DNA of 63,569 nt, filler included, from Actinomycetota bacterium (GCA_025963875.1; 5 parts of 5 records of this genome joined end to end with filler, not necessarily neighbours in it); one strand, 5' to 3'. Shown: positions 26,027 to 40,492, counted from the whole stretch's first letter. Program-made: numbers and translations. Notes: generated by a model not told the origin, from the sequence alone.

Positions 26027-27424
26027 CTAGGGGTAGGGCGACGCCGTCTCGGAGACCCGGAACGAGGGACTTCTCATCGCCTTGACGGACGGAGTCGCGA
26101 AGGGACTCGGTGAGAGGGTCGGGTATGGCGACGGCGTCCTCGTCAGCAGCGGGTTGAGCGACGGTGTCGCCGAGGGTGCGGACGGGCTCACGTCCGTCAC
26201 CGACGACCCCCGCTTCGCCAGCACGGCGAAGAAGTCTCTCGTGGAGGCGCCGAGGTAGCGGCCAGGATCGCCGGCCATCGTCGGCAGCAGCTTGGACCCG
26301 TTCGCGGAGTTCGGATCGGCCCCCATCACCGGCTTGAACGAGATGAACGACACCCACGTGGAGTTGATGTCCAACTCCATCGCCCGGACTGCGCCGGCGT
26401 GTTTGAGGATGTCCGCGAGGGATTGGATCGACAGCCCGGGGCCGGCGGCGTACACCAGAGCGCCGTTGCGGGTGACCCCGATCCCGGAGCGCCAGACGAG
26501 CACCTCGTTGCGCAGCGTGGCCCCCCACGAGCGCATCGAGTTGTGGAACACCTCCGGCGTGACCAGGCCGCCGTCGAGGATCAACGACAGGTTCTGGCGC
26601 ACGGCGTAGACCGAGGCCGTGATGGTGACGTCCCGCCCCCACTTCGCCACCGTGGCCGAGCCGTCCCGGTTGATCACCAGCGACGCTGCGTTGTCGACGA
26701 GCGGCCGTCCGGTGCGCCCGCCCGCGTAGTAGCCGCCCCAGCCGTCGGGCAGGCGGAAGCCGGCATTGAACGTGGCGAGCAGCCGGCGCCGTTGGTCGGC
26801 AGACAGCGGCGCCTGGTCCACCCACCCGCTGCCCCCCGGCTGCTGGGAGCCGGCGACGAGGCGCAGGTCGATCACGCGCGGGTCCATCCAGACCAGGCCG
26901 GCGGTCAGGCTGGTGTGCACCGCGTCGGGCCGGATGAAGGCCGCATACATCGCCGCCTCTCCGCCCACGGTTCGCCCGACGGGCTCCCATTGACCCTCGC
27001 CGGTCAGCGGCGGCTGCGCGATGGCCGGGACCGCCTCGGGCTTGCCGAGCGGCGACAGGGGAATGCCGGTCGCCTGGGGGTCCACCGAGCTCGGATCGAT
27101 GGTGCCGGTGCCGCCGTTCATGGCGGCGGGCGGTGCCCCACCGGCCGGCGGTGCGTTGTGCCCGTAGTACATGTTCTCGAACCAGGCCACCAACCGGGAT
27201 CCGCCCATCGACCGGACCCAGTCGACGGTACGGGCTCCGAGGGCGCCCCCGCCCGGCACGGTGAGCGCCTGGACGTAGGACACACCGAGGGGAGTGCCGA
27301 CCACCACGGCGACCAGTGCCACGATCGCCACCCATCGCCGCACCGAAAGGGTCCCGATCTGTACCCGGGGCTTGCCGGGAGCCTCTTTTTGGATCCAGGG
27401 CCGGTCGTCGAGCATGTTGGTCAT
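26027..27424 (-). CDS. membrane-anchored phosphodiester glycosidase (NAGPA/DUF2233-like) family protein
   Basis: N-terminal TM helix, FNAGF, RSGIG, AMELDIN motifs; ATGA overlap with dprE2. Confidence 0.75.
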   Translation of the reverse strand: MTNMLDDRPWIQKEAPGKPRVQIGTLSVRRWVAIVALVAVVVGTPLGVSYVQALTVPGGGALGARTVDWVRSMGGSRLVAWFENMYYGHNAPPAGGAPPAAMNGGTGTIDPSSVDPQATGIPLSPLGKPEAVPAIAQPPLTGEGQWEPVGRTVGGEAAMYAAFIRPDAVHTSLTAGLVWMDPRVIDLRLVAGSQQPGGSGWVDQAPLSADQRRRLLATFNAGFRLPDGWGGYYAGGRTGRPLVDNAASLVINRDGSATVAKWGRDVTITASVYAVRQNLSLILDGGLVTPEVFHNSMRSWGATLRNEVLVWRSGIGVTRNGALVYAAGPGLSIQSLADILKHAGAVRAMELDINSTWVSFISFKPVMGADPNSANGSKLLPTMAGDPGRYLGASTRDFFAVLAKRGSSVTDVSPSAPSATPSLNPLLTRTPSPYPTLSPSPFATPSVKAMRSPSFRVSETASPYP

Positions 27425-28182
27425 CCCGGCAACCTGCGGAACACGGCAGTCGGCAGCAGCTTCACGGCAGCCATCACCCAGCGCAGCACCGGCGGGGCCC
27501 ACACGAGGTCCTCGCCGGTCTCCAGCCCCCGGACCACGCATTCGGCGACGTCCTCGGCCGTGGTTGCGAACGGCGCGGGCTTGAGGCCCGCGGTCATGCG
27601 CGTCGCCACGAAGCCGGGGCGGACCACGACCACCCGGGCGCCCGAGCCTTCGAGGTGGTGGCGGAGGCCCTGGAAGAAGGCGTCCATACCGGCCTTGGAG
27701 GAGCCGTAGACGAAGTTGGAGGGGCGCACCCGGACCCCGGCCACCGAGGAGAGCGCCATCAGCGTCCCGTGCCCCTGCCGGCGCAGGTGCCCGGCGACGG
27801 CGATGCCCGCCGAGACCGAACCCGCGAAGTTGACAGCCGCCACCTCGGCGGCCCCCGTGGCATCGGTGGCGTCGCGCTCGGGGACGCCAAGGGTCCCGAA
27901 GGCGAAGAGCACGAGGTCGATGTCGCCGTGGCGACCGAAGACGTCGTCGATGAGGCTCTGGTGGCCGGCGGTCTCGGTCGCCTCGAACGAGAGGGTCTCG
28001 ACCGTCTCCGCCCCGAGCGTGAGCAGCTCGGCCGCGGTCTCCTTCAGCCGCTCTGGATCCCGGCCGGCGAGGATGACCGTCCGGGCGCGCCTCGCGACGA
28101 GCCGGCGCAGGATCGCCCGGGCCAGCTCCGAGCTCCCTCCCAGCACGAGGACGGACTGCGGCGCCCCCAGGGCGTCGTTCAT
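27421..28182 (-). CDS. dprE2: decaprenylphosphoryl-2-keto-ribose 2-reductase (SDR)
   Basis: MNDALGAPQSVLVLGGSSE, SSVAG.RVR.SNFVYGSSKAG; follows dprE1. Confidence 0.92.
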   Translation of the reverse strand: MNDALGAPQSVLVLGGSSELARAILRRLVARRARTVILAGRDPERLKETAAELLTLGAETVETLSFEATETAGHQSLIDDVFGRHGDIDLVLFAFGTLGVPERDATDATGAAEVAAVNFAGSVSAGIAVAGHLRRQGHGTLMALSSVAGVRVRPSNFVYGSSKAGMDAFFQGLRHHLEGSGARVVVVRPGFVATRMTAGLKPAPFATTAEDVAECVVRGLETGEDLVWAPPVLRWVMAAVKLLPTAVFRRLPG

Positions 28183-29540
28183 GCCGCCCTCCGCTGCAGG
28201 GTGAGGCCGAGCCGCCGGGCCAGATCTGATTGGAGGACCCCCTGGGGATCCACCCGGTCCCGCACCGCCTTCCACTCCCCGAGGCGGGGGTACATGTGGG
28301 CGAGCAGGTCGGGGCGCAGCCGGCCGTCCTTCGCCAGGTACACCCGGCCGCCGGCGCCGGCAACCAGCTCGTCGAGGGTATCGAGGAACGCCGCGAGGCC
28401 CCCGAGGCGCGCGGGGAGGTCGAGGGCCAGGGTCCAGCCGGGCATGGGGAACGACAGTGGGCCCGGATCGGCGGGCCCGAACCGCTTGAGCACGGCGAGG
28501 AACGAGGGCAGGCGCAGCGCGGAGAGGCGCTGCAGGGTCGTTTGAACGATGTCCACGGCTGCGAGCGGCACGACGAACTGGTACTGGACGAAGCCGCCAG
28601 GGCCGTACAGGCGGTTCCACCCGCGCACCGCGTCGAGCGGGTGGAAGAAGCTCGAGATCGGCTCGATCGTCGTCGCATGGGACTTCGCCTTGCGGAACCA
28701 GCCCTCGTTGAACAACCGCACAGTGGTCCGGTTGACGAGACCCGGCACGAAGGCCGGCACGGAAAGGTGCGAGGAGGGATCGAAGCGGAGTGGATGCTGC
28801 CGTGCGGCCGCGGGGAGCTCGTCGACCCGGGCGTGGTCCCCCCGGGTGAGGACGGAGCGGCCGAGGGCCCGGCCCTGCGCCAGGCAGTCGATCCAGGCGA
28901 CGGAGTAGCGGTGGCCGGCGTCGCCCGAGGACATCCTGGCCATCACGTCGTCGAGGTCCGCCGCCCGTTCGGTGACCACCCGGACCCGGGAGGTCTCGAT
29001 GGGCAGCATGCGGAGCGTCGCCCCGAGGATGATCCCGGTCAGTCCCATGCCGCCGGCGGTGGCCCAGAAGAGATCCGGGTCATCGCTGGGCGTGACCTCG
29101 CGGGTGCCCGCCGGGGTGGCGAGCGTGAGCGACGTGACGTGGGAGGCGAAGCTGCCCTCGGCATGGTGGTTCTTGCCGTGCACGTCCGCCGCGATGGCGC
29201 CGCCAACGGACACCCACCGCGTGCCGGGTGAGACCGGTACGAACCAGCCCCGGGGCACCAGCGCCCGCAGGATGGCGTCGAGGCTCGTCCCGCCGCCGAC
29301 GGCGAGGAGCCCCGCCGCTTCGTCGCTCCAGCTCATGCGGTCGAGGGCGGCGGTGGCGACAACGGTGCCACCGGCGTTCTGGGCGGCGTCGCCGTAGCTG
29401 CGCCCGAGCCCGCGCGCGATCACGCCCCGGGAACCCGGCGACGCCAGCATGGCCGCCGCAGAGCCCGCATCGGCGGGCCTGACGACCTCGGCCGTCGTGG
29501 GCGCAGTTCGCCCCCAGCCCGTCAGGACCTCAGTGCCCAT
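28179..29540 (-). CDS. dprE1: decaprenylphosphoryl-ribose 2'-oxidase (FAD-binding)
   Basis: LTGWGRT, RGLGRSYGD, DVHGKNHH, YSVAWID, GGRVYLAKD. Confidence 0.93.
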   Translation of the reverse strand: MGTEVLTGWGRTAPTTAEVVRPADAGSAAAMLASPGSRGVIARGLGRSYGDAAQNAGGTVVATAALDRMSWSDEAAGLLAVGGGTSLDAILRALVPRGWFVPVSPGTRWVSVGGAIAADVHGKNHHAEGSFASHVTSLTLATPAGTREVTPSDDPDLFWATAGGMGLTGIILGATLRMLPIETSRVRVVTERAADLDDVMARMSSGDAGHRYSVAWIDCLAQGRALGRSVLTRGDHARVDELPAAARQHPLRFDPSSHLSVPAFVPGLVNRTTVRLFNEGWFRKAKSHATTIEPISSFFHPLDAVRGWNRLYGPGGFVQYQFVVPLAAVDIVQTTLQRLSALRLPSFLAVLKRFGPADPGPLSFPMPGWTLALDLPARLGGLAAFLDTLDELVAGAGGRVYLAKDGRLRPDLLAHMYPRLGEWKAVRDRVDPQGVLQSDLARRLGLTLQRRAA

Positions 29541-30490
29541 CAGGGCCCATAGACGCCGGCGGCGAACAAGGCAGCCCACACCGTCCCGAGCAGCAGGATG
29601 GTCCGGTCCCTCAGCACCACGTCCTCCGGCGCACCGCCGGCTCCGCCCTCCAGGAGCAGGGCGTAGCGCAAGATTGCCAGCACGAACGGCACGATCGTCA
29701 ACTCGAAGTACACGTGGCCGCGGGGGGCGAGGGATGCCTTCTCGAAGGCCCAGAAGCAGTACGCGGTGATGGCGATGCCGGCCGACGTCCCGCGGATGAA
29801 GCGGAGGAACTGCTGGGAGTAGGCGCCCAGCGCCCCCCGGTGGCCGATGCCCCCGAGCTCCAGCTCGCGGTGGTCGGCCTGGCGCTTGCCGGCGACCATG
29901 AACAGCGACCCGAACGAGGCGACGATGAGGAACCAGTTGGACAGCGGCACCCCCACCGCCAGCCCTCCGGCGATCGCCCGGATGAGGAAGCCGGACGCCA
30001 CCGCGGCGAGGTCGAGGATGGGCTCGCGCTTGAGCCAGACGCTGTAGGCGAGGTTGATCCCGGCATAGACGCCGACGGCCAGGGCGAACTCCCCGCCCAG
30101 GAGGGCAGCCCCCAGCCCGATGGACCCGGCCAGCAGCAGCGCGGCTGCCACCGCGGCGGTCCGGGGGCCGACCACGCCCGCCGCCACCGGCCGGTGACGC
30201 TTGTCCGGATGGAGGCGGTCCACCTCGCGGTCGAGGGCATCGTTCATGAAGTACGTGCCACTGGCGGCGAGGCAGAAGATGGCGAAGGCGATGAGGCTGC
30301 GGCCCAGCGCCGTGCCGTGCGTCAGGACCCCCGCGGCGCCGGGCGCTGCGAAGACGAGGAGGTTCTTGATCCACTGGCGAGGGCGCGCCGTCCTGACGAG
30401 TCCGGCGGCGAGCCCCATCGGGGGGGCCGCAGCTGCGCTGTCGGAATCGGGAACGGGCTCTGGGCGGGGCCGCGGCTCGGCCTCGGTCAT
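29540..30490 (-). CDS. ubiA: decaprenyl-phosphate phosphoribosyltransferase (UbiA family)
   Basis: RPRQWIKN, YFMND..D...DRLHP.KRHRPVAAG; operonic with dprE1/E2. Confidence 0.92.
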   Translation of the reverse strand: MTEAEPRPRPEPVPDSDSAAAAPPMGLAAGLVRTARPRQWIKNLLVFAAPGAAGVLTHGTALGRSLIAFAIFCLAASGTYFMNDALDREVDRLHPDKRHRPVAAGVVGPRTAAVAAALLLAGSIGLGAALLGGEFALAVGVYAGINLAYSVWLKREPILDLAAVASGFLIRAIAGGLAVGVPLSNWFLIVASFGSLFMVAGKRQADHRELELGGIGHRGALGAYSQQFLRFIRGTSAGIAITAYCFWAFEKASLAPRGHVYFELTIVPFVLAILRYALLLEGGAGGAPEDVVLRDRTILLLGTVWAALFAAGVYGP

Positions 30491-30733: not shown

Positions 30734-30833
30734 NNNNNNNNNNNNNNNNNNNNNNNNNNNNNNNNNNNNNNNNNNNNTTAATTAATTAANNNNNNNNNNN
30801 NNNNNNNNNNNNNNNNNNNNNNNNNNNNNNNNN
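30734..30833. other. artificial contig-join spacer
   Basis: N44-TTAATTAATTAA-N44, stop codons in all frames. Confidence 0.97.
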
Positions 30834-31507
30834 GGGACGGCGGCGACCACGACGAACGAGGACACCAGCTTGGGGTGGGCGCAGACGATGTCGTAGGCCA
30901 TCCGGCCGCCGTTGCTGTACCCGACCAGGTAGACGGCGCTGACGTCGGGCCGGCTGCCGACACTGCGGATGAGATTGGTGACGAACGAGACGTCGTCCAC
31001 CCCGGCGAGCTGCGCCGGGCCGCAGCAGGCGCCGGCGTTCCAGGACTGCCCGTAGCCGCTGGGGTAGACAACGAGGGCCTTGCCCTGCTTGGCGAGCTGG
31101 ATCAGCCCGTCCCGGCTCTCCTCGACGGTCACCGACGATTTGCGGCCGTGCAGGACGACCAGCGCCGGGAGCCGTCCGGTCGCTCCCGCAGGCGGGGAGA
31201 AGACGTCGTAGGTCCGGACCATGCCCCCCACCGTCACGCTGGACGTCACCGGCGTGATGCCGTCCGGCAGGACCGGGGTCGGAGGCCGCACCGGGCCGCG
31301 GCCGATGCCTGCCCCCGTCGCGAGCTGCTTGGCGGGCACGGCGGCGCCGGGGTGCGTGGCCACGGCGTGCCGGGCGGGGACCTCCTGGCCGAAGACGCCG
31401 CCGGCGAGGTCGAGGTCGGGCAGGCCGCGGGAGGCCGACACCAGTGCGGCGGCAAGGAAGACGGCAAGGAAAAGACCTCCCACGACGAGCGTGCGCCGGC
31501 GTCTCAA
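30834..31507 (-). CDS. secreted or anchored alpha/beta-hydrolase esterase (PHB depolymerase/LpqP-like), 3' truncated by gap
   Basis: signal or TM segment, LVVLHG, SWNAGACCG, VDDV.F, GYSNGG nucleophile elbow; TTGA overlap with VOC stop. Confidence 0.85.
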
Positions 31508-31902
31508 TACATCATCCGGGGGTCGAGGTAGTGCTTGAACTCGACGAGGTTGTTCGAGGGGTCGACGAGCACGAAGGTCGAGTGCTCCTCGACCAGGCCG
31601 TCGAAACGCTGCGACGGCTCGGCGAAGAATGTGGCACCGCGGACTCGGGCGAGGCGTACGAGGGCGTCGAAATCCTCCCGGCGCCGGAACGTGATGCCGA
31701 AGTGGCGGGGGTACATCTCGGGGTGCTCCTCGATCCGGTCGGACAGGTGGCACACAAGCTGATCACCGAAGAAGTCGAGCGTGATGCGGTCGGCGTAGCG
31801 GCGCGCCAGTTTGCAACCAAGGAGCTTGACGTAGAACGCTTCGGCTTCGTCGAGATCTCGGGCAGGGATTGCAAGGTGAAAGGCGTCGTCGCTGGTTCGC
31901 AC
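31504..31902 (-). CDS. VOC (glyoxalase/bleomycin-resistance/dioxygenase) family protein
   Basis: FHLAIP..DL...FY...LGC, PRHFG, DPSNNLVEFK with H/H/E metal ligands. Confidence 0.9.
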   Translation of the reverse strand: MRTSDDAFHLAIPARDLDEAEAFYVKLLGCKLARRYADRITLDFFGDQLVCHLSDRIEEHPEMYPRHFGITFRRREDFDALVRLARVRGATFFAEPSQRFDGLVEEHSTFVLVDPSNNLVEFKHYLDPRMMY

Positions 31903-31963
31903 GGTTGTCGTATCGGCTCAGAATGGCTTCAACTGGATCCCCCGAACAGGGTCACGACGTAGC

Positions 31964-32722
31964 TCACAAGAGTAGCGTGTCGGACCGCAACCCGAGGCGG
32001 AGGGTCTCGAGCGCCAGGACATCGCCCGGGGCGATGTTCCCGAGGTTGACGTTGGTCCCCACCCGGCGCACGAACCAGGTCTGCAGGTCCTTGGTGGGCG
32101 CCTCGAACACCATTCGCTCGACGTCCGGGACTGCGGTGAGGATGCCCTCGACCAACTCCCGGCGGAGCCCCCCGTCGGGATGGCAGATCCCGCTGCGACC
32201 GCTCTCGCGGGCCTCGGCCACCACGTACGAGGCGCCCGCTTCGAAGTCCTGGTGGATGAACGCCAGCCAGTCCTCGACCGTCTGGGTCTCCGATCGGGCC
32301 GAGTCCTTGCAACCCACCTCGGAGAAGACGGCGAACTCGCCGGCGAGCTTCTCGACGTAGCGCGCCTTCTCGTCGTTGGGCAGTTCCACCGTGCCATTGG
32401 AGACTTCGACGTACCGGCACCCCCAATGGTGGCAGTAGGCGCGGAAGTCGTCGAAGGCGCTACGGGAGAGGAACTTCTCGAACAGGGTCCCGCCGAAGAA
32501 GAAGGGGATCTCCAGCTCCCGGAGCGTCGCCAGCTTGTCGGCGAGCTGGTGGGTCACCAGCGACGTCCCCCAGCCGAACTTGACGTAGTCGACGAGCTGC
32601 GACGTGCTCTCGAGGTAGTCCCGGAAGAGCCCTTTGGGCAGGCCGTTGTCGATGATCGTGGTGAGCCCGGCCTGCCGGGGCTTGGGCGGCCGCTCCGGCA
32701 GGCGGAGCGAGTGCGGGATCAT
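31964..32722 (-). CDS. comA: phosphosulfolactate synthase
   Basis: KPR..GLT..ID.G, DYVKFGWGT, GGTLFE, VEVSNG, SEVG.KD, EARESG, FEAP, NVNLGNI, LETLRLGLRSDT. Confidence 0.95.
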   Translation of the reverse strand: MIPHSLRLPERPPKPRQAGLTTIIDNGLPKGLFRDYLESTSQLVDYVKFGWGTSLVTHQLADKLATLRELEIPFFFGGTLFEKFLSRSAFDDFRAYCHHWGCRYVEVSNGTVELPNDEKARYVEKLAGEFAVFSEVGCKDSARSETQTVEDWLAFIHQDFEAGASYVVAEARESGRSGICHPDGGLRRELVEGILTAVPDVERMVFEAPTKDLQTWFVRRVGTNVNLGNIAPGDVLALETLRLGLRSDTLLL

Positions 32723-33939
32723 GCGGCACTCCCGTGATGCCGGAGGAGCTGGTGCCTCAGGCGGGGGCGGCCCGCGACCACGAGACTCGCCGGCGTGCGC
32801 CGCGTCCAGCCCACGAGGGCCACCGAGGCGGCCAGGAGCAACGGGACGACCACCAGGAGATCCAGCGGCAGGACCACCACGGACGGGATCGCACCGGCGA
32901 CCGTGCGGGAGGCCAGCGGGGCTGCGACGATCAGGAGGCCTTGCAGCAGCAGGGGGTGGGCCAGATACACGCCGAAGGTGGCGTCGGACGCGGCGCGGAC
33001 GGCCCGGCGAAACCGCCGCTCGGGCCCCCGGTCCGCCCACCGGACGCCGAGGGCGAAGAGGCCCAGCACCGAGGCGGCCGTCGTGACGGCGATCATCGGC
33101 TGGAACACCTCGCCCGCAGCCGCCGCGTCCATGCCGGCGGCGACGTGGTCGAACAGGTAGCTCCCCAGCCCGGCGGCCAGGCCGCCCGCAACAAGGAGGT
33201 GCACCGCACGCCGGTGGGTGCGGACCCAGGCTGCCAGCTCCTCGAGGTGGAACGCGGCGATGCCGCCGGCCACCAGGTAGAGCTGGTAGCTGAACACCAG
33301 GGGGTCGGGATGCCGCAGCCAGACGCCGAGGAGCCCGGGTGCATGGAGGGGAGCGTCCCGGAAGTAGTGCAACGTCGCGGTGAACACCGTCTGCACCGCC
33401 ACGCTCGCCGCCAGGAGGAGCCCGTGATGCCGGCGGGTGGCCCGCAGCAGCCACAGCAGGAGGGGGAACGCCGCGTAGATCTCCATCGTGACGAGCAGGA
33501 AGTACAGGTGGTACCGGGCCGTGCCCGTCAGCAGGTCCTCGAGCAGCCGGTGGGCCGGGGCACTCCATGGGCGGTACGGGCCTCCGTCGGCGACGAAGTA
33601 CAGGACGCTCCAGGCAAGGTACGGCACCCCGACGAACAGGTAGCGCCTCCTCCAGAACGATGTGAGCGACCAGCCGTGGCGGCTGCCGTAGCTGTAGCAG
33701 AGGACGAAGGCCGTCAGGAAGAAGAACACCTCGCGGTTGACGTGGAGGAGGGCGTTCGCGGCGCCGACCACGACATCCTGTGGGTCGGTTGTGTAGGCCA
33801 CGACATGCACCGCGATGACGCCGGCGATCATCGCCACCCGGACAAGGTCAACGGCGTCGAGATGGGGACGGCGGGCCGGCGCGGGTACGGCCTGGTCCAG
33901 AGCGCCGGAGGCGGTGCTCGGCGCGGCAACGGCGCTCAT
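32719..33939 (-). CDS. membrane acyltransferase family 3 (OafA/IcaC-like)
   Basis: DLVR..MIAGVIAVH, FFFLTAFVL, FWRRR...VGVPYLAWS, YHLYFL, TFGVYLAHP; about 10 TM helices. Confidence 0.9.
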   Translation of the reverse strand: MSAVAAPSTASGALDQAVPAPARRPHLDAVDLVRVAMIAGVIAVHVVAYTTDPQDVVVGAANALLHVNREVFFFLTAFVLCYSYGSRHGWSLTSFWRRRYLFVGVPYLAWSVLYFVADGGPYRPWSAPAHRLLEDLLTGTARYHLYFLLVTMEIYAAFPLLLWLLRATRRHHGLLLAASVAVQTVFTATLHYFRDAPLHAPGLLGVWLRHPDPLVFSYQLYLVAGGIAAFHLEELAAWVRTHRRAVHLLVAGGLAAGLGSYLFDHVAAGMDAAAAGEVFQPMIAVTTAASVLGLFALGVRWADRGPERRFRRAVRAASDATFGVYLAHPLLLQGLLIVAAPLASRTVAGAIPSVVVLPLDLLVVVPLLLAASVALVGWTRRTPASLVVAGRPRLRHQLLRHHGSAA

Positions 33940-35315
33940 GAGGTTGCCAGCTCCCGCAGCGCGTCTCGCCGGACCTTGCCGGTCGGCGTGAAGGGGAGGC
34001 TGTCGGCCAGGTGGATCCGGGCCGGGCGCTGGTGGCGGCTCAGCTCGCGTTCGCAGAGCTGAAGGAGCTGCGTTGCGAGGTGGGCGGGGGTCCCATCTCG
34101 GGGCACGACGAACGCAACGGGGACCTCGCCCAGCACCGGGTCGGGCACCCCCACGACGGCCGCCTCGGCGACGCCGGGGTGGCCCCGCAGCACCTCCTCG
34201 ACCACCCGCGGGTACACCTTCTCCCCGCCGCGGTTGATGACGCCGTCGATCCGGCCGAGGAGGTAGAGGAAGCCCTCGTCGTCGCGGTAGCCGACGTCGT
34301 CGGTGCGGAACCATCCGCCGGCGCCGGCTGCGGGGGCCCGGGAGGGCGGGGCGCCGGGGACGAGGTAGTGGTCGACGACGGTCGGGCCGAGGATCTCGAC
34401 GAGCCCGGCGGCACCGGCGGCAAGCGGCGCCCCGTCGTCGCCGATCAGCCGCACCTCGAGGCCGACCGGTTGCCCGACGGATCCGGGGCGACGGGCGGCG
34501 GGGTCCAGCGGGTTGGCACAGATCTGCCCGGCCGCCTCGGTCATCCCGTAGGTCTCGAGGACGCCGATGCCGCATCGCTCCTCGAACCGGCGCAACGTGG
34601 CGGGCGGCAAGGGCGCCGACGCTGAGCGGGCAAAGCGGATCCTGGCTGCCACGGCCGGGGGCGGCGGTGGCTCCTGGGCGAGGATGGCGAGGATGGCCGG
34701 GACCGCATTGAGGACGGTCACGCCGCAGCGGTCCATCACGTCCCAGAACCCCGTGCGGTGGAACCGGTCGTCGACCGCCAGCGTCGCCCCCGACACCAGC
34801 GCGGCCAGCACCCCGACCACCTGGGCGTTGATGTGGAAGAGCGGCAGCGGGCTGTAGACGGTGTCACCGGGAGAGAACCGGTGGTGGCGGGCCACGAGGC
34901 TGGCGGCGTGCAGGAGGCGCGCCTCGCCCAGCGGCACCCCCTTCGGCGTGCCGGTCGTACCGGAGGTTCTGAGGACGACGGTGCCCGGCTCCGCCCAGCC
35001 AACCGGAGCGGGCCCCCCGATGTCGAAGCCATCCACGGCGGCAGCCACATCGGCCTCCGGCGCATCGGGAGCCATCGGGAACACGACGGCGCCCGCGGCG
35101 AGGAGGCCGAGGTACGCCGTGATGAACTCAAGCGGCCGCTCCTGCCTGAGCAGCACCGCCCTCCCGGCAATATCGCTGCGCCCGGTCCAGCCCGCGAGCA
35201 GCCCTGCGAGAGCGCCCCAGGTGATGGTGTGGCCGGTCCTGCCCTCGACCAGGGCGGCATCCGACGAGGCACGCTCGGCGTGCTCGGCGACCAGTGCCGC
35301 TATGCGCCTCGGCAT
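33936..35315 (-). CDS. AMP-binding acyl-CoA ligase
   Basis: TSGTTGTPKG, LPLFH, RSASAPL, ETYGMTE, GWFRTDD, INRGGEK, TPTGKV; AGGAGG RBS. Confidence 0.93.
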   Translation of the reverse strand: MPRRIAALVAEHAERASSDAALVEGRTGHTITWGALAGLLAGWTGRSDIAGRAVLLRQERPLEFITAYLGLLAAGAVVFPMAPDAPEADVAAAVDGFDIGGPAPVGWAEPGTVVLRTSGTTGTPKGVPLGEARLLHAASLVARHHRFSPGDTVYSPLPLFHINAQVVGVLAALVSGATLAVDDRFHRTGFWDVMDRCGVTVLNAVPAILAILAQEPPPPPAVAARIRFARSASAPLPPATLRRFEERCGIGVLETYGMTEAAGQICANPLDPAARRPGSVGQPVGLEVRLIGDDGAPLAAGAAGLVEILGPTVVDHYLVPGAPPSRAPAAGAGGWFRTDDVGYRDDEGFLYLLGRIDGVINRGGEKVYPRVVEEVLRGHPGVAEAAVVGVPDPVLGEVPVAFVVPRDGTPAHLATQLLQLCERELSRHQRPARIHLADSLPFTPTGKVRRDALRELATS

Positions 35316-35439
35316 CGACGGCAACCTCCTGGAGCAACGTTGGACAGGAACGTTTCTGGGAAGCAGCTTGAAGGCTGAACATGGACGGAATCTGTCCGCC
35401 AATTGTGTCCCCCCTGTTAGCAACCCCCGGGCGCGACCG

Positions 35440-36234
35440 TTACGACCAGATCGTGACCGGTCGGGCCTGCAGCTCGCCGTCCACGGTGATGTCCACCTTC
35501 TCGTTGTAGAAGCTCACCATGTTCTCGATCTTGGGGCACTCGGGGATGGGGAACGGGTAGCCCCAGAGGATGTCTCTGGGCCCGTCCCGCATCGTCCAGT
35601 AGACGGCGATCCCCTTGTAGGGGCACTGGCTCGTCGTGCGGGACGGCTGCATGAGGTCCATCCGGACATCAGGCTTCGGCAGGTAGTAGCGGGTGGGCAG
35701 TCCGGTCTCGAACAGCAGGCACGGCCGGGAACTCTCCGCAACGACCTGGCCGCCAATCTCCACCCGGACATGGCGGGAACTGCGCAGCACGTCGACTCGG
35801 TGGTACGGGTCACGAGGGTGGACGTAGACCTCGTCGTCCTCCTCGTACCAGGAGTCCATCTCCTTCCAGTAGAAGGCGACGTGGTCCTTCAGCGCCTCCA
35901 GGCCCGGCCCGGGATCGGGGTAGGTCCAGGCTGCCTTCTCCGCACGTCGCTCCCCGACCACGACGTCGAAGCGGGTGGCCCGGGAGGGCGTCGACCCCGT
36001 ATGGCCCGCGGGCCAGAGGTACCCCGCCGACACGTCCGCCTGGGGAAACCAGTAGACGGGCAGCCGCTTCGGTTCGAACGCGAGCAGGGCGTTGCGGGAG
36101 TCGGCGACCGCAACGCCGTTGAAGTACACCCGCACGCGTCTCGGCGACGGTTCCACCCAGGGGCCGTCGACGATGCGCCGGCGTGGCGGCTCCACGATCT
36201 CCTTCTCCTCGATCCGCTCCGCCATCGCGCTCAC
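35440..36234 (-). CDS. DUF427 tandem-domain protein
   Basis: AAWTY, WYEED, HPRDPYHRVD, LFETGLPTRYY, CPYKG. Confidence 0.92.
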   Translation of the reverse strand: MSAMAERIEEKEIVEPPRRRIVDGPWVEPSPRRVRVYFNGVAVADSRNALLAFEPKRLPVYWFPQADVSAGYLWPAGHTGSTPSRATRFDVVVGERRAEKAAWTYPDPGPGLEALKDHVAFYWKEMDSWYEEDDEVYVHPRDPYHRVDVLRSSRHVRVEIGGQVVAESSRPCLLFETGLPTRYYLPKPDVRMDLMQPSRTTSQCPYKGIAVYWTMRDGPRDILWGYPFPIPECPKIENMVSFYNEKVDITVDGELQARPVTIWS

Positions 36235-36773
36235 ACCTCCTCGAAGAACACGGTCAGGTTGCCGGCGAAGGGCGCCAGCGTGTCCTGCAGCCCCCGGACG
36301 ATCTGGCGGAGGTGGAGCAGGTCGTGGCAGGCCCAGTAGTGGATGAGGTCCCGGGCGGCGAAGATCCCGGCCCGGTCGTGCTCGCCTTCGCTGTCGAGCG
36401 CGCCGGCGGGCAGCGACCGCAGCCAGGCGACGTCACGTGCACGCCGCTGCTCGAGCTCGGCGAGGAGGTTCTCGACGGTACGGGCCGCATAGCCCCCTTC
36501 CACGAGGCGCGCGGGGGGATCGATGGAGCGGATGTAGGGCCGCTCGCCGTTCACGCCGGCGTCCACCAGGCGGCGCACGCGGTCCATGAAGGCGATGTCC
36601 TCGACGTCGACCAGGTGCTCGGCCACCTGCCGCGGCCCCCAGCCTTCGCCCCCGGTGGGGCCACCTTCGAGGACCGGCGCGTCCAGAGCATCGACCAGGC
36701 CTCGGAGCACTGTTGGTGTACGGCCGATGATCGTCAGGGCGGCCTCCAGGCTGGCGAAGGGGGCTTCGGGCAC
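36231..36773 (-). CDS. DinB family protein
   Basis: WGPRQVAEHL..E, HDLLHLRQI metal triad. Confidence 0.88.
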   Translation of the reverse strand: MPEAPFASLEAALTIIGRTPTVLRGLVDALDAPVLEGGPTGGEGWGPRQVAEHLVDVEDIAFMDRVRRLVDAGVNGERPYIRSIDPPARLVEGGYAARTVENLLAELEQRRARDVAWLRSLPAGALDSEGEHDRAGIFAARDLIHYWACHDLLHLRQIVRGLQDTLAPFAGNLTVFFEEV

Positions 36774-36835
36774 GGACCCAAGGTAACGCAACCGGGATGC
36801 ATGCGGCGAGCCGTTGCGGCATGATGCTCCCTGCA

Positions 36836-37282
36836 ATGGCGCAGGTGACGCAGAAACCCCAGGGGTCCCCGGAGTGTGGGTTCATGAAAGCGCTCGAAGA
36901 CCCCGACGCCCTCCTACTCCACCAGGTCCACCCGGTCAAGCTGGCGGCGGACGCCGGGGCGGCAGCTGTCTCCCTCTGGCTCCTGTGGCGGGGCCGCACG
37001 AAAAGCGGCATTGCCGTCCACTACCTGATTCCCCTGGTCGCTTCCGCCTTCGTCCTCACCCGGGACGTCTCGTACCTCAGGGCCACGGGCCGGGGCCGCT
37101 ACGTGCTCGAGCACATGCCGCCTCCGGCGCAAGGGGTGCGGGCGCTGGGCGACACCCTGATGGTGCGGGGTGCCCGGAAGCACCAGACGAGGTGGATCGT
37201 CGCCGGGGCGCTCGGCGTCGCGGCCGGGTGGGCCTACGGCCTGGTGCCCCGGCCCAACCGGAGTTCAAGCTCGCCGTTCTAG
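36836..37282 (+). CDS. hypothetical membrane protein
   Basis: HQVHPVKLAAD followed by hydrophobic helices; start uncertain (36836 or 36884). Confidence 0.7.
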   Translation: MAQVTQKPQGSPECGFMKALEDPDALLLHQVHPVKLAADAGAAAVSLWLLWRGRTKSGIAVHYLIPLVASAFVLTRDVSYLRATGRGRYVLEHMPPPAQGVRALGDTLMVRGARKHQTRWIVAGALGVAAGWAYGLVPRPNRSSSSPF

Positions 37283-37333
37283 ACTGGGCGACCTGCCGGA
37301 ACACCGACCGATCATCGAAGAAGGAGAGGCCCT

Positions 37334-39022
37334 CTGACCCGCGCCCGCCGACGGTTCCCTGCGCTCGTTCCCGTGCTTGCTCTGGCCCTGCTGGCCGCCT
37401 CCTGCGGCGCCAAGAGCGCGTTCAAGGTGGGCCAGAACGACATCAACCCGGTCCCCCGGTCCAACCTGCAGGACGGGGGCACCCTGAACTGGCCGATTGC
37501 CGCGCTGCCGATCAACTACAACTTCAACGGGGAGGCCGGGGCCAGCACCGACGAGCTGGCGATCATCAGCGCACTGATGCCGACGCTGTTCACCTTCGAT
37601 GCGACCGCGCAGCCGGTCATCAACAGCGCCTACCTCGACACCGCGGCCGTCACCACCGGCGCGCCGCAGCAGGTGGTCACCTACCGGATCAACCCCAAGG
37701 CGGTGTGGGGCGACGGGACACCCATCACGGAGGCCGACTTCGAGGCCCAATGGCGGGCGCTCAACGGCACGAACAAGGACTTCCGCACCCCGTTCACCCA
37801 GGGCTACAACGAGATCACGTCGGTGACGCCGGGCAGGGACACCCGCGAGGTGCTCGTCACGTTCAGCCAGCCCTACGCCGACTGGCGGGGACTCTTCAGC
37901 CCGCTGTTCCCGGCGTCGCTCAACAAGGACGCCCAGACGTTCAACAACGGCTGGGTCACCGGGACCGTCACCTCCGCAGGGCCGTTCGTGTTCCAGAGCC
38001 AGGACGTGCCGGGCAAGACGGTCACCCTCGTCCGTAATCCCCACTGGTGGGGCCAGACTCCCAGGCTCTACTCGATCGTCTACCACGGCGTTGGCAGCGA
38101 CCCCAACGCCCAGCTCGATGCGCTGAGCAAGGGCCAGATCGACTTCGTCGGGATCTCCCCCAACACCGACCAGCTCAAGAAGGGGCAGGGCGTCACGGAC
38201 GCCGTCGAACGGAAGTGGGCCGGCCCGACGTTCCGCCAGCTCACGATGAACGGGACCAGCCCCACGCTCAGCAACGCCAACGTCCGCAAGGCGATCGCTC
38301 TTGCGGTGGACCGCCCCGCCATCGCCAAGGCCCTGCTCGATCCGCTCGGTGTGCCGGACGCCAGCCTCGACAACCACATCTTCATGACCAACCAGCACGG
38401 GTACCAGGCCAACGCCGGCGACCTGGCGAAGGCCGATGCGGCCAAGGCCGGGGCCCTGCTCGACCAGGAGGGTTGGAAGCTCGCCGGCGCGGACCGCTCC
38501 CGCAACGGCCAGCCGCTGTCGATCCGCCTCGTCATTCCCGACAACCTCGCCGAGGCAGGCCAGGAGGCGGACCTCATCAAGACCCAGTTGAAGGGCGTGG
38601 GCGTGGCGGTGGCGGTCCAGCCGGTCCCGAGCCAGCGGTTCTTCGACAGCTTCGTGACCAAGGGGGACTTCGACATGGCCCTGTTCTCGTGGCAGGGCAC
38701 CGTCTTTCCGATCAGCTCCAACCTCCCCATCTATCAAAACCCGACACCCCAGCCGGGCGGCGACGTCGACATCCACCAGAACTACGCGCGCATCGGCTCC
38801 CCCGCCATCGACACCCTCTTCGCCAGGGCCACCGCAGAGCTCGACCCCCAGAAGGCCATCGCGCTCGGCAACCAGATCGACACCGAGATCTGGAAGGAGG
38901 TCCACTCGCTGACGCTGTACCAGCGCCCCCAGCTCGTCTTCCAGAAGAAGACCCTGGCCAACTTCGGGGCGTTCGGCTTCGCCTCCGTCAACTACGAGGA
39001 CATCGGCTTCTCGAAGCCCTGA
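37334..39022 (+). CDS. ABC transporter family 5 substrate-binding lipoprotein (orphan)
   Basis: lipobox LAASC, INPKAVWGDGTPIT..DF, SAGPF, VRKAIALAVDR; CTG start at 37334 proposed, first canonical GTG is 37373. Confidence 0.9.
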   Translation: MTRARRRFPALVPVLALALLAASCGAKSAFKVGQNDINPVPRSNLQDGGTLNWPIAALPINYNFNGEAGASTDELAIISALMPTLFTFDATAQPVINSAYLDTAAVTTGAPQQVVTYRINPKAVWGDGTPITEADFEAQWRALNGTNKDFRTPFTQGYNEITSVTPGRDTREVLVTFSQPYADWRGLFSPLFPASLNKDAQTFNNGWVTGTVTSAGPFVFQSQDVPGKTVTLVRNPHWWGQTPRLYSIVYHGVGSDPNAQLDALSKGQIDFVGISPNTDQLKKGQGVTDAVERKWAGPTFRQLTMNGTSPTLSNANVRKAIALAVDRPAIAKALLDPLGVPDASLDNHIFMTNQHGYQANAGDLAKADAAKAGALLDQEGWKLAGADRSRNGQPLSIRLVIPDNLAEAGQEADLIKTQLKGVGVAVAVQPVPSQRFFDSFVTKGDFDMALFSWQGTVFPISSNLPIYQNPTPQPGGDVDIHQNYARIGSPAIDTLFARATAELDPQKAIALGNQIDTEIWKEVHSLTLYQRPQLVFQKKTLANFGAFGFASVNYEDIGFSKP

Positions 39023-39042
39023 GTGCCTCCAGCGGCGGGAGG

Positions 39043-39801
39043 TCAGGCCGTGAGCGGCCAGACGAGCTCGATGTGCACGTTGTCGAAGTCGGGGTCCTCG
39101 AAGGAGCCCATCGTGCGGGCAACCATGCCCTCGATCGGGCCGTCGGCGATCACTCGGCCGAAGGCCTGGCTCTCGATGAGGCGGTTGCACAGCTCCGAGG
39201 CCGCCGGCATCGCATCCTGGGGGACGTTCCGGATGCTGACGTCGGGCCGGCCGAACGCCCGGAGCCCCCGGGTGTGCAGCCAGACGGTGGCTTCTTTTGA
39301 TCCGGCGCCTTGAGGGGCGCCTCGGGCCTCTTCCTCGCCGTGGAACACGTTGACGTGGAGGCGCGGCTGTGGCTTGTCGGGGGCGAAGATGACCCCTCGC
39401 CACTGCTCGGGGGTGAACATGCCGAGAGACTGGAGGTTGGCGGCGGCGCGGCCCCCGGCCTCGAGGATGGCGGTCACGACCCCGACACAGTTGCGCAGGT
39501 AGCGGAGATCCTTCGGGTCGGGGACGTCCGCCCGCATCACCATGCAACCGTCGGCCGCCAGCACGGACGGTTCCTCGCCCTCCCACCCCTGGAGCAGGGT
39601 GGCCCCGACGGGCGAGTCCAGCAGGCCCGCCGCCACCTGGGGTTCCTGGTACTCCAGCTCGAGCGACAGGTCCATCGGCACGACGCGGTGGGCCAGCGAG
39701 GTGACCCGGAGCGGCTCCGGCTTCGGTCCGAAGACCACGAACAACACGGAGGCGTCGCCGCCGCCGGCTTCATACTGCGGTCGTTCCCAGTCCTCTTCCA
39801 A
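39043..39801 (-). CDS. hypothetical protein
   Basis: 252-aa ORF with coding bias; WLHTRGLRAFGRPDV resembles DUF4261-type proteins. Confidence 0.75.
   Translation of the reverse strand: MEEDWERPQYEAGGGDASVLFVVFGPKPEPLRVTSLAHRVVPMDLSLELEYQEPQVAAGLLDSPVGATLLQGWEGEEPSVLAADGCMVMRADVPDPKDLRYLRNCVGVVTAILEAGGRAAANLQSLGMFTPEQWRGVIFAPDKPQPRLHVNVFHGEEEARGAPQGAGSKEATVWLHTRGLRAFGRPDVSIRNVPQDAMPAASELCNRLIESQAFGRVIADGPIEGMVARTMGSFEDPDFDNVHIELVWPLTA
39300..39324 (+). repeat. family A copy (in-frame inside 39043-39801)
   Basis: exact 25-mer, read as RGAPQGAG. Confidence 0.92.
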
Positions 39802-40392: not shown

Positions 40393-40492
40393 NNNNNNNN
40401 NNNNNNNNNNNNNNNNNNNNNNNNNNNNNNNNNNNNTTAATTAATTAANNNNNNNNNNNNNNNNNNNNNNNNNNNNNNNNNNNNNNNNNNNN
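40393..40492. other. artificial contig-join spacer
   Basis: N-run with TTAATTAATTAA. Confidence 0.97.

Follow-up and report, generated by a model that had tools for sequence, protein, structure and literature searches.

A Conserved ComA-VOC-Ligase-AT3 Gene Module in Gram-Positive Bacteria: A Candidate System for Supply and Transfer of a Sulfonated Acyl Group

Gene Content and Layout of the Locus

The window considered here is the whole stretch of Actinomycetota DNA that was analyzed, 63,569 nucleotides including filler. At 30834–35315 it carries five genes, all called as open reading frames (ORFs) on the minus strand, which are the subject of this paper. They encode an acid-coenzyme A (CoA) ligase, an acyltransferase-3 (AT3) membrane protein, ComA, a small VOC protein and an exported alpha/beta hydrolase. 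The genes are tightly coupled. Read on the minus strand, start and stop overlap as ATGA at 33939–33936 (ligase/AT3), ATGA at 32722–32719 (AT3/ComA) and TTGA at 31507–31504 (VOC/hydrolase), each over 4 nt, and the ComA-VOC spacing is 61 nt. The five co-directional genes and the three overlaps are thus present as an earlier note on this DNA had described them. Pfam and NCBIfam profile scans support the family assignment of all five genes, that of the hydrolase via NCBIfam.

At least five contigs make up the window, connected by linkers that each consist of an N run, TTAATTAATTAA and a second N run. By sequence reading, one such joint occupies 30734–30833, with a different contig to its left; further joints lie near 40437, 55150 and 59306. 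Because the linkers join contigs artificially, genes across a linker are not physically linked. The contig of the operon is about 9.5 kb long, beginning at 30834 and stopping near 40400. The earlier note had the contig ending inside the esterase, and the hydrolase gene is indeed cut there after about 224 codons.

The first gene (33936–35315, minus strand) encodes an ANL-superfamily ligase of an oxalyl-CoA-synthetase-like clade (PF00501, 165.7 bits; PF13193, 79.4 bits). Its frame is open to a TTG at 35423, and the likely start is the ATG at 35315, which gives about 459 residues. The TSGTTGTPKG P-loop-like motif and the PTGK catalytic lysine, conserved among the cluster ligases, place them in the ANL superfamily, and cluster-linked ligases share the motifs PLFH(I/V)NA(Q/E)VV, RSASAPL and YGMTEA..I.ANPL. 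The top matches in a PDB sequence search are the oxalyl-CoA synthetases 6qjz, 5ie0 and 8aff (235–223 bits), then FadD13 and malonyl-CoA synthetases, which bears out the likeness to oxalate-CoA ligase proposed earlier. Identity to 5ie0 and 6qjz is about 45%, over residues 105–455 only. The best NCBIfam model is that of the FadD7 family (NF004511) at 286.9 bits, under the cut-off of 650. By sequence comparison the ligase falls in a clade related to oxalyl-CoA synthetase (AAE3/Pcs60) and FadD7, and is a member of neither.

The best solved relatives of the ligase are therefore the oxalyl-CoA synthetases (AAE3, Pcs60; 5ie0, 6qjz, 8aff) and the malonyl-CoA synthetase MatB (4fut, 3nyq), with which it has in common RF.RS.SA.L, Y.MTEA...NPL and the catalytic lysine. 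It differs from the oxalyl-CoA synthetases in having HINAQ for HVHGL and AAGQICA for ATHLMSS, at positions that we take to line the acyl pocket, and in having a shorter N-terminal subdomain. Because of these differences, the substrate is probably not oxalate.

The second gene (32719–33939, minus strand) encodes a stand-alone integral membrane acyltransferase of 406 residues that matches PF01757 with 99 bits (cut-off 31). It consists of the AT3 domain alone, with no fused C-terminal SGNH domain, and the hydrolase is a separate gene. A PDB sequence search with it gave no solved relative. Members of the AT3 family take acyl groups from acyl-CoA in the cytoplasm and hand them to acceptors outside it; an SGNH partner often finishes the transfer. 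Residues R34, H45 and R69 are invariant in all 15 cluster-linked AT3 proteins, and presumably are the counterpart of the arginine and histidine of transmembrane helix 1 (TM1) that we take to be essential in OafA and OatA.

ComA (31964–32722, minus strand, 252 residues) belongs to the (2R)-phospho-3-sulfolactate synthase family and matches PF02679 with 277.2 bits (cut-off 25.2) over profile positions 1–243 of 243. It scores 284 bits against the B. subtilis phosphosulfolactate synthase YitD (structure 1u83) and 162 bits against methanogen ComA (1qwg); against TIGR03849, the archaeal equivalog of the coenzyme M pathway, it reaches 222.9 bits, under the cut-off of 280. Judged by these scores, it groups with the bacterial YitD-like branch, outside the archaeal equivalog. 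A coenzyme M biosynthesis pathway was considered and rejected, as ComB was found neither in the window nor in four cluster-bearing MAGs (metagenome-assembled genomes) and ComA has other genes around it. PF02679 also scores above cut-off in the control genomes of Corynebacterium glutamicum, B. subtilis and M. jannaschii. The abstract of a study of the pH response of C. glutamicum reportedly mentions phosphosulfolactate synthase.

The VOC gene (31504–31902, minus strand) encodes a small single-module protein of 132 residues (PF00903, 46.9 bits; cut-off 20.6), about 70% identical to the uncharacterised structural-genomics entry 3rri_A of Alicyclobacillus acidocaldarius. Its AlphaFold2 (AF2) model has a pLDDT of 91.8 and a TM-score of 0.93 to 3rri_A and about 0.67 to FosA; after 3rri_A, it is structurally most similar to integron-cassette VOCs and to the fosfomycin-resistance proteins FosA, FosB and FosX. 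In 24 VOC sequences H9, H67 and E121 (an H/H/E triad) and R34, R35, R39, R66 and R99 are invariant. The triad and the five arginines suit a putative metal site holding a small polyanion. The family comprises 2,517 clusters at 90% identity with E ≤ 1e-20, and the family listing, which concerns VOC alone, includes the cultured genera Pseudonocardia, Nocardia, Jatrophihabitans and Sulfobacillus. A Protein Atlas look-up with VOC returned generic VOC clusters only.

The last gene (30834–31507, minus strand) is the 5' part of a gene for an exported alpha/beta hydrolase of the polyhydroxybutyrate-depolymerase/feruloyl-esterase type. The fragment scores 19 bits against PF10503, under the cut-off of 23, and matches NF050058, the NCBIfam model for polyhydroxyalkanoate-depolymerase-type esterases, with E 1.1e-20; it is weakly similar to the feruloyl esterases 9j07 and 8jh8. 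A 4127-nt contig from a separate metagenome (L011), with 96–100% protein identity to the window over the five genes, gives the 3' end of the hydrolase and the start of a convergent HAD gene. There the full-length hydrolase has 359 residues, with an N-terminal RRRR followed by a hydrophobic segment, a GYSNGG nucleophile elbow and a GGGHAWP motif.

Conservation of the Gene Association

The association was probed from three anchors: ComA in reference genomes, VOC in metagenome contigs and AT3 in two taxonomic groups. Locus content was counted by tblastn with a panel of query proteins (E ≤ 1e-8). As the metagenome contigs are short, absences from them are weak evidence, and metagenome-assembled genomes (MAGs) are incomplete. 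The earlier note had reasoned that a comA not conserved beside the ligase-AT3 pair would count against its reading of the operon; co-occurrence is seen from all three anchors.

The ComA anchor gives ten loci in reference genomes. VOC adjoins ComA in five of the seven bacterial loci, four of which also have AT3 and the ligase, across three orders and two phyla. Relatives with 67–88% ComA identity have the five genes in identical order, and two Actinomycetota MAGs (ComA identity 81–88%) have them in the order of the window. The order is His_Phos_1-ComA-VOC-ligase-AT3 in an Acidimicrobiaceae MAG, with an SGNH hydrolase on the opposite strand, and ComA-VOC-PBP-AT3-ligase-SGNH in a Bacillota MAG. 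B. caseinilyticus and three Methanobrevibacter loci have ComA without the other module genes.

The VOC-anchored set is the best 80 of 415 metagenome relatives; two of these (L040 and L041) are the same contig, which leaves 79 loci with a median length of 4.1 kb. Among the 79, ComA is found in 66, AT3 in 45, the ligase in 28, AT3 or the ligase in 52 and both in 21, all on the strand of VOC. Counted over all 80, 60 loci extend 800 nt or more upstream of VOC. ComA lies directly upstream in 54 of these and directly downstream in one; despite room it does not adjoin VOC in L012, L021, L022, L024 and L037. Thirteen loci extend at least 4 kb to both sides, and AT3 is present in ten of them and the ligase in nine, with neither in L033, L045 and L052. 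Loci bearing the core families show at least five gene orders.

From the AT3 anchor, the order of G001 (26 genomes) has the AT3 subfamily and VOC in the same four genomes, 1–2 kb apart, and neither in the other 22. The class of G003 (251 genomes) has AT3 in five, all five with ComA and VOC within about 2 kb. In the two sampled groups together, all nine genomes with the AT3 subfamily have ComA-VOC within about 2 kb. Among 401 genomes sampled evenly from the phylum, AT3 occurs in G001 and, at 34–35% identity, in G088 only; the G088 homologue was set outside the subfamily, having no ComA, VOC or ligase within about 8 kb. Many soil-dwelling Gram-positives, here Actinomycetota and Bacillota, keep the module as a unit. 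It is rare but coherent, far beyond chance packing.

VOC also occurs in other company. Two loci of high-GC spore formers (L031:4816-9228 and L033:9107-14717) have ComA-VOC without AT3 or ligase next to a GerA/GerAC/spore-permease germination-receptor operon and an NlpC/P60 hydrolase. By analogy with the spore sulfolactate of B. subtilis, what ComA-VOC makes may serve some Bacillota as a solute of the spore. A ComA-VOC-ComB architecture is seen in L035:6601-9518, L047, L054 and L005:8340-11417, with two tandem ComA copies in L035. In Bacillus sp. T33-2, ComB-ComA-VOC comes after genes of sulfate activation (PAPS reductase, sulfate adenylyltransferase-like and APS-kinase-like). A close relative of the window cluster (L012:2-1426) has AT3 in three tblastn pieces and then VOC directly, with no ComA between, and may be a decaying copy or an assembly error. 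L021:8077-10399 and L022 have ligase-VOC without ComA after an 82-residue ORF, flanked by GntR, amidohydrolase and phosphotransferase system (PTS) genes. That ORF, examined as a possible acyl carrier protein (ACP) like the one of the misaugamycin cassette described below, has no Pfam match. These two loci may represent a different use of VOC.

Phosphatases beside the Module

Three unrelated phosphatases alternate beside the module. His_Phos_1 lies directly upstream of ComA in 21 of the 37 loci with room for it. ComB is found in L005, L035, L047 and L054 (three loci and Bacillus sp. T33-2), never with His_Phos_1. A convergent HAD hydrolase lies beyond the esterase in nine of the ten window-type loci with at least 290 nt past it, the exception being L001. 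Because of this alternation, dephosphorylation to sulfolactate appears to be part of the pathway, and sulfolactate is probably an intermediate. The position of the HAD gene suggests that the window contig ends just short of a candidate phosphatase. The earlier note had suspected a ComB-like phosphatase out of view, and what most window-type relatives have there is a HAD gene. VOC itself was considered as the phosphosulfolactate phosphatase and rejected, since it co-occurs with ComB or His_Phos_1.

A Possible Pathway to a Sulfoacetylated Envelope

The acyl group can be approached through one natural product, misaugamycin, a type V glycopeptide of Streptomyces sp. WAC00631. In the published report, misNOPQ (ACP, acyl-CoA ligase, phosphosulfolactate synthase and glyoxalase) is predicted by the authors to supply the N-terminal 2-sulfoacetyl group of misaugamycin-B; sulfite feeding favours this congener, and misaugamycin-A bears an isosteric malonyl group instead (PMC9136965). 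Because this is the only chemically anchored cassette of ComA, VOC and ligase found in print, and it is assigned to 2-sulfoacetyl, the acyl group of the window system is more likely 2-sulfoacetyl than sulfolactyl. Of the two decorations put forward in the earlier note, sulfoacetyl is hence favoured and sulfolactyl becomes the less likely. As the anchor points to a C2 acid, VOC would be the only candidate for the C3-to-C2 step, and we prefer this role to that of the epimerase suggested before. VOC probably acts on the free acid before activation, because it accompanies ComA and ComB without the ligase in the four ComB-bearing loci. The kinship of the ligase with oxalyl- and malonyl-CoA synthetases, which use small anionic acids, fits sulfoacetate.

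The families, their tight coupling and their conserved co-occurrence are observed; we infer from them each chemical step, the acyl group and the acceptor. ComA would add sulfite to phosphoenolpyruvate (PEP) to give phosphosulfolactate, the known function of its family. A phosphatase encoded outside the window would then remove the phosphate, the candidates being the HAD protein past the contig end here and His_Phos_1 or ComB in other lineages. VOC, with its putative FosA-like His/His/Glu site ringed by arginines, would convert sulfolactate (or phosphosulfolactate) to 2-sulfoacetate, for which an oxidative decarboxylation of sulfolactate that needs a metal and O2 would be the simplest route. 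The ligase would form sulfoacetyl-CoA in the cytoplasm, and AT3 would move the acyl group from this thioester across the membrane to its outer side. The exported hydrolase would complete the transfer to the acceptor or trim the acyl group.

The last of these steps leaves room for two roles. SGNH hydrolases replace the alpha/beta hydrolase in other lineages (L004, L007 and L050), and an exported hydrolase of either kind is detected in 22 of the 79 VOC-anchored loci as well as in L004 and L007. Because the classic AT3 partner takes the place of the hydrolase elsewhere, a transfer role is at least as likely as that of an eraser. The hydrolase may therefore be the outer transfer partner, although the data fit the eraser of the earlier note too.

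As acceptor, a glycopolymer or glycolipid of the envelope seems likeliest, though this is a guess; it would gain a permanent negative charge. Two-component system ORF clusters are present in 21 and 17 loci, their representatives being an OmpR-type regulator and a HAMP/HisKA kinase, and a sortase ORF cluster in four loci. An LCP protein and a transglycosylase are among the informative neighbours in other loci. Several ORF clusters without a Pfam match (e.g., L071:287-1057) are probably shadow frames of the regulator and kinase genes on the other strand and were left uncounted. No nonribosomal peptide synthetase (NRPS), polyketide synthase (PKS), ACP or other biosynthetic genes flank the loci examined, and glycosyltransferases are not consistently attached to them.

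On another contig, at 27421–30490 on the minus strand, Pfam identifies a short-chain dehydrogenase, a FAD_binding_4/ALO oxidase and a UbiA-family prenyltransferase. This trio resembles the DprE2-DprE1-decaprenyl-phosphate phosphoribosyltransferase set for decaprenyl-phospho-arabinose. If it is one, an arabinan-containing wall may be possible, which would be a conceivable acyl acceptor.

Taken together, we consider it moderately probable that the operon both supplies and transfers a sulfonated acyl group, with the chemistry as set out above. The fuller proposal, that many soil Gram-positives esterify an envelope polymer with 2-sulfoacetyl groups by means of AT3 and the exported hydrolase, and that VOC is the first sulfoacetate synthase, dependent on a metal and O2, is tentative, and we hold it as a possibility short of an even chance. 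Several points weigh against the supply-and-transfer reading. We know of no VOC enzyme that carries out oxidative decarboxylation of a 2-hydroxy acid. AT3 enzymes can acylate small molecules too, for example macrolides. No glycan, lipid or carrier genes accompany the module across the loci, which makes the acceptor a guess. The window has no gene for a ComB, His_Phos_1 or HAD phosphatase, and ComB (PF04029) was not found in the four cluster-bearing MAGs (G001, G002, G003 and G005), which may be incomplete. VOC occurs in one of the 401 genomes of the phylum sample (G001 only), so the module is rare. Three of the 13 long loci have ComA-VOC without AT3 and the ligase, some of them beside spore-germination operons, and because such pairs occur, the sulfonate would have other fates too. 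The sulfoacetyl assignment is a prediction of the misNOPQ authors and not a demonstration (PMC9136965).

Alternative Explanations

The closest alternative keeps the system and changes the transferred group to 3-sulfolactyl (or phosphosulfolactyl). VOC would then be an epimerase or accessory protein with sulfolactate or sulfolactyl-CoA as its substrate, much like methylmalonyl-CoA epimerase. The product of ComA is a C3 acid, and phosphatases accompany the module. The VOC superfamily includes epimerases and isomerases, and neither the alignment of 24 sequences nor the comparison of the AF2 model reveals an oxygenase-specific feature. On the other side, the nearest relatives of the ligase use C2–C3 diacids, and sulfoacetate is isosteric with malonate; the occurrence of VOC with ComA and ComB but no ligase (L005, L035, L047 and L054) speaks for action on a free acid. 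The only natural product tied to a ComA, VOC and ligase cassette bears 2-sulfoacetyl and not sulfolactyl (PMC9136965). We regard sulfolactyl transfer as rather unlikely. Alternatively, the module could tailor a secreted small molecule or glycolipid, with AT3 resembling the macrolide O-acyltransferases or the product entering an assembly line whose genes lie elsewhere. Antibiotic acyltransferases are found within the AT3 family, and no envelope-synthesis genes adjoin the operon in the window. The sole precedent found in print sits in an antibiotic gene cluster (PMC9136965). However, assembly-line and other biosynthetic genes are missing from the flanks of the loci examined, the informative neighbours (two-component system, sortase, LCP protein and transglycosylase) are related to the envelope, and systems for envelope O-acylation typically have an exported hydrolase as partner, as the module does with its alpha/beta or SGNH protein. 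A small-molecule substrate thus appears improbable, more so than a sulfolactyl group.

Two further explanations fare worse. Sulfoacetate-CoA ligases exist in degradation pathways, and the operon could on that ground serve sulfonate catabolism or sulfite detoxification, with ComA reversed or acting as a sulfite sink and the ligase acting as SauT does in sulfoacetate degradation. No architecture contains a sulfoacetaldehyde dehydrogenase, Xsc, a sulfo-lyase or a sulfonate transporter, however, and a membrane AT3 and an exported hydrolase have no catabolic role, so that we consider catabolism very improbable. That the five genes are unrelated neighbours packed by chance is contradicted already by the comparative data. 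Joint occurrence of the four core families spans at least five orders, two phyla and hundreds of metagenome contigs, ComA-VOC adjoins AT3 in nine of nine AT3-anchored genomes, and start and stop codons overlap by 4 nt. We give chance packing almost no weight.

Relation to Known Systems

To our knowledge, the bacterial envelope decorations described so far (acetyl, succinyl, D-alanyl and lysyl among them) do not include sulfonated acyl esters. The module probably represents acylation of the envelope by an AT3 protein that draws on a dedicated sulfonated donor, a kind of surface modification for which we know of no published description. A full-text literature search found no description of a sulfoacetyl or sulfolactyl surface modification or of a ComA-VOC-ligase-AT3 system, and one partial match (PMC9136965). 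The statement in the earlier note that no pathway of this composition had been described is thus nearly right, misNOPQ being a partial precedent. By its described gene content, misNOPQ shares with the window operon the phosphosulfolactate synthase, the glyoxalase/VOC protein and the acyl-CoA ligase. The mis cassette has an ACP and is predicted to acylate the N-terminus of a peptide made by an NRPS, whereas the window operon has AT3 and an exported hydrolase instead (PMC9136965). An ACP gene is excluded from the window operon, where the junctions are 4-nt overlaps or the 61-nt gap, and there are no NRPS genes on the contig.

Likeness to established envelope acylation systems is found at the membrane. 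OatA and OafA/OafB, in which AT3 is fused to SGNH and the donor is acetyl-CoA, share with the window system the PF01757 AT3 domain, the conserved TM1 Arg/His and an extracytoplasmic partner of hydrolase fold. They differ from it in that the proposed donor here is a dedicated sulfonated acyl-CoA made by co-encoded enzymes and in that the partner is unfused, alpha/beta here and SGNH elsewhere. The succinyl-transferring AT3 proteins OpgC, ExoH and mycobacterial SucT install an anionic ester decoration, as the window system would. In the Dlt system of D-alanylation (DltA, the carrier DltC, DltB and DltD), the logic is similar: an adenylating enzyme, a membrane acyltransferase and an exported hydrolase-fold protein together alter the surface charge. 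The module, moreover, lies beside a two-component system in some lineages. Unlike Dlt, however, the window system has AT3 rather than MBOAT as its membrane protein and no carrier protein, and its effect on charge would be the opposite, an anionic sulfonate for a cationic D-alanine.

At the level of supply, the first enzyme is the same as in sulfolactate synthesis by YitD/YitC in B. subtilis and in the first two steps of coenzyme M synthesis in methanogens (ComA and ComB), and a phosphatase step probably comes next here too. In contrast to both, no ComB was found in the lineage of the window, and VOC, the ligase and AT3 replace ComC and ComDE. The product is proposed to be transferred, rather than accumulated as with YitD/YitC or converted to coenzyme M as in methanogens.

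If the sulfoacetyl proposal is true, the envelope would acquire a permanent, pH-independent anionic charge, in function the reverse of D-alanylation. Bacteria would thereby have a further, new means of setting surface charge, which could affect cation binding, susceptibility to antimicrobial peptides and phages, and adhesion to soil. It would also provide a function for a very conserved VOC family, for the structural-genomics entry 3RRI and for bacterial ComA homologues outside coenzyme M synthesis. The VOC activity would also account for where misaugamycin-B gets its sulfoacetyl group and hint at the nature of the ComA-VOC product in spore formers. If the cultured VOC-bearing genera also carry AT3 and the ligase, the hypothesis is directly testable there.

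Neighbouring Genes

A scan of 30835–37400 for promoters and terminators gave nothing useful. Upstream of the operon on the minus strand lie a DUF427 gene (35440–36234; PF04248) and a DinB-family gene (36231–36836; PF12867), co-directional with the operon and overlapping each other's ends by 4 nt. Beyond the DinB gene, the stretch 36797–39801 holds a small ORF, a family-5 peptide/nickel-type ABC substrate-binding protein and a 252-residue protein without a family match. The whole stretch (35440–36836 and 36797–39801) is syntenic in L001 and L017 and missing from other architectures. The DUF427 and DinB-family genes are kept in L001, L002, L016 and L017 only; they are lineage-specific neighbours that lie outside the conserved module.

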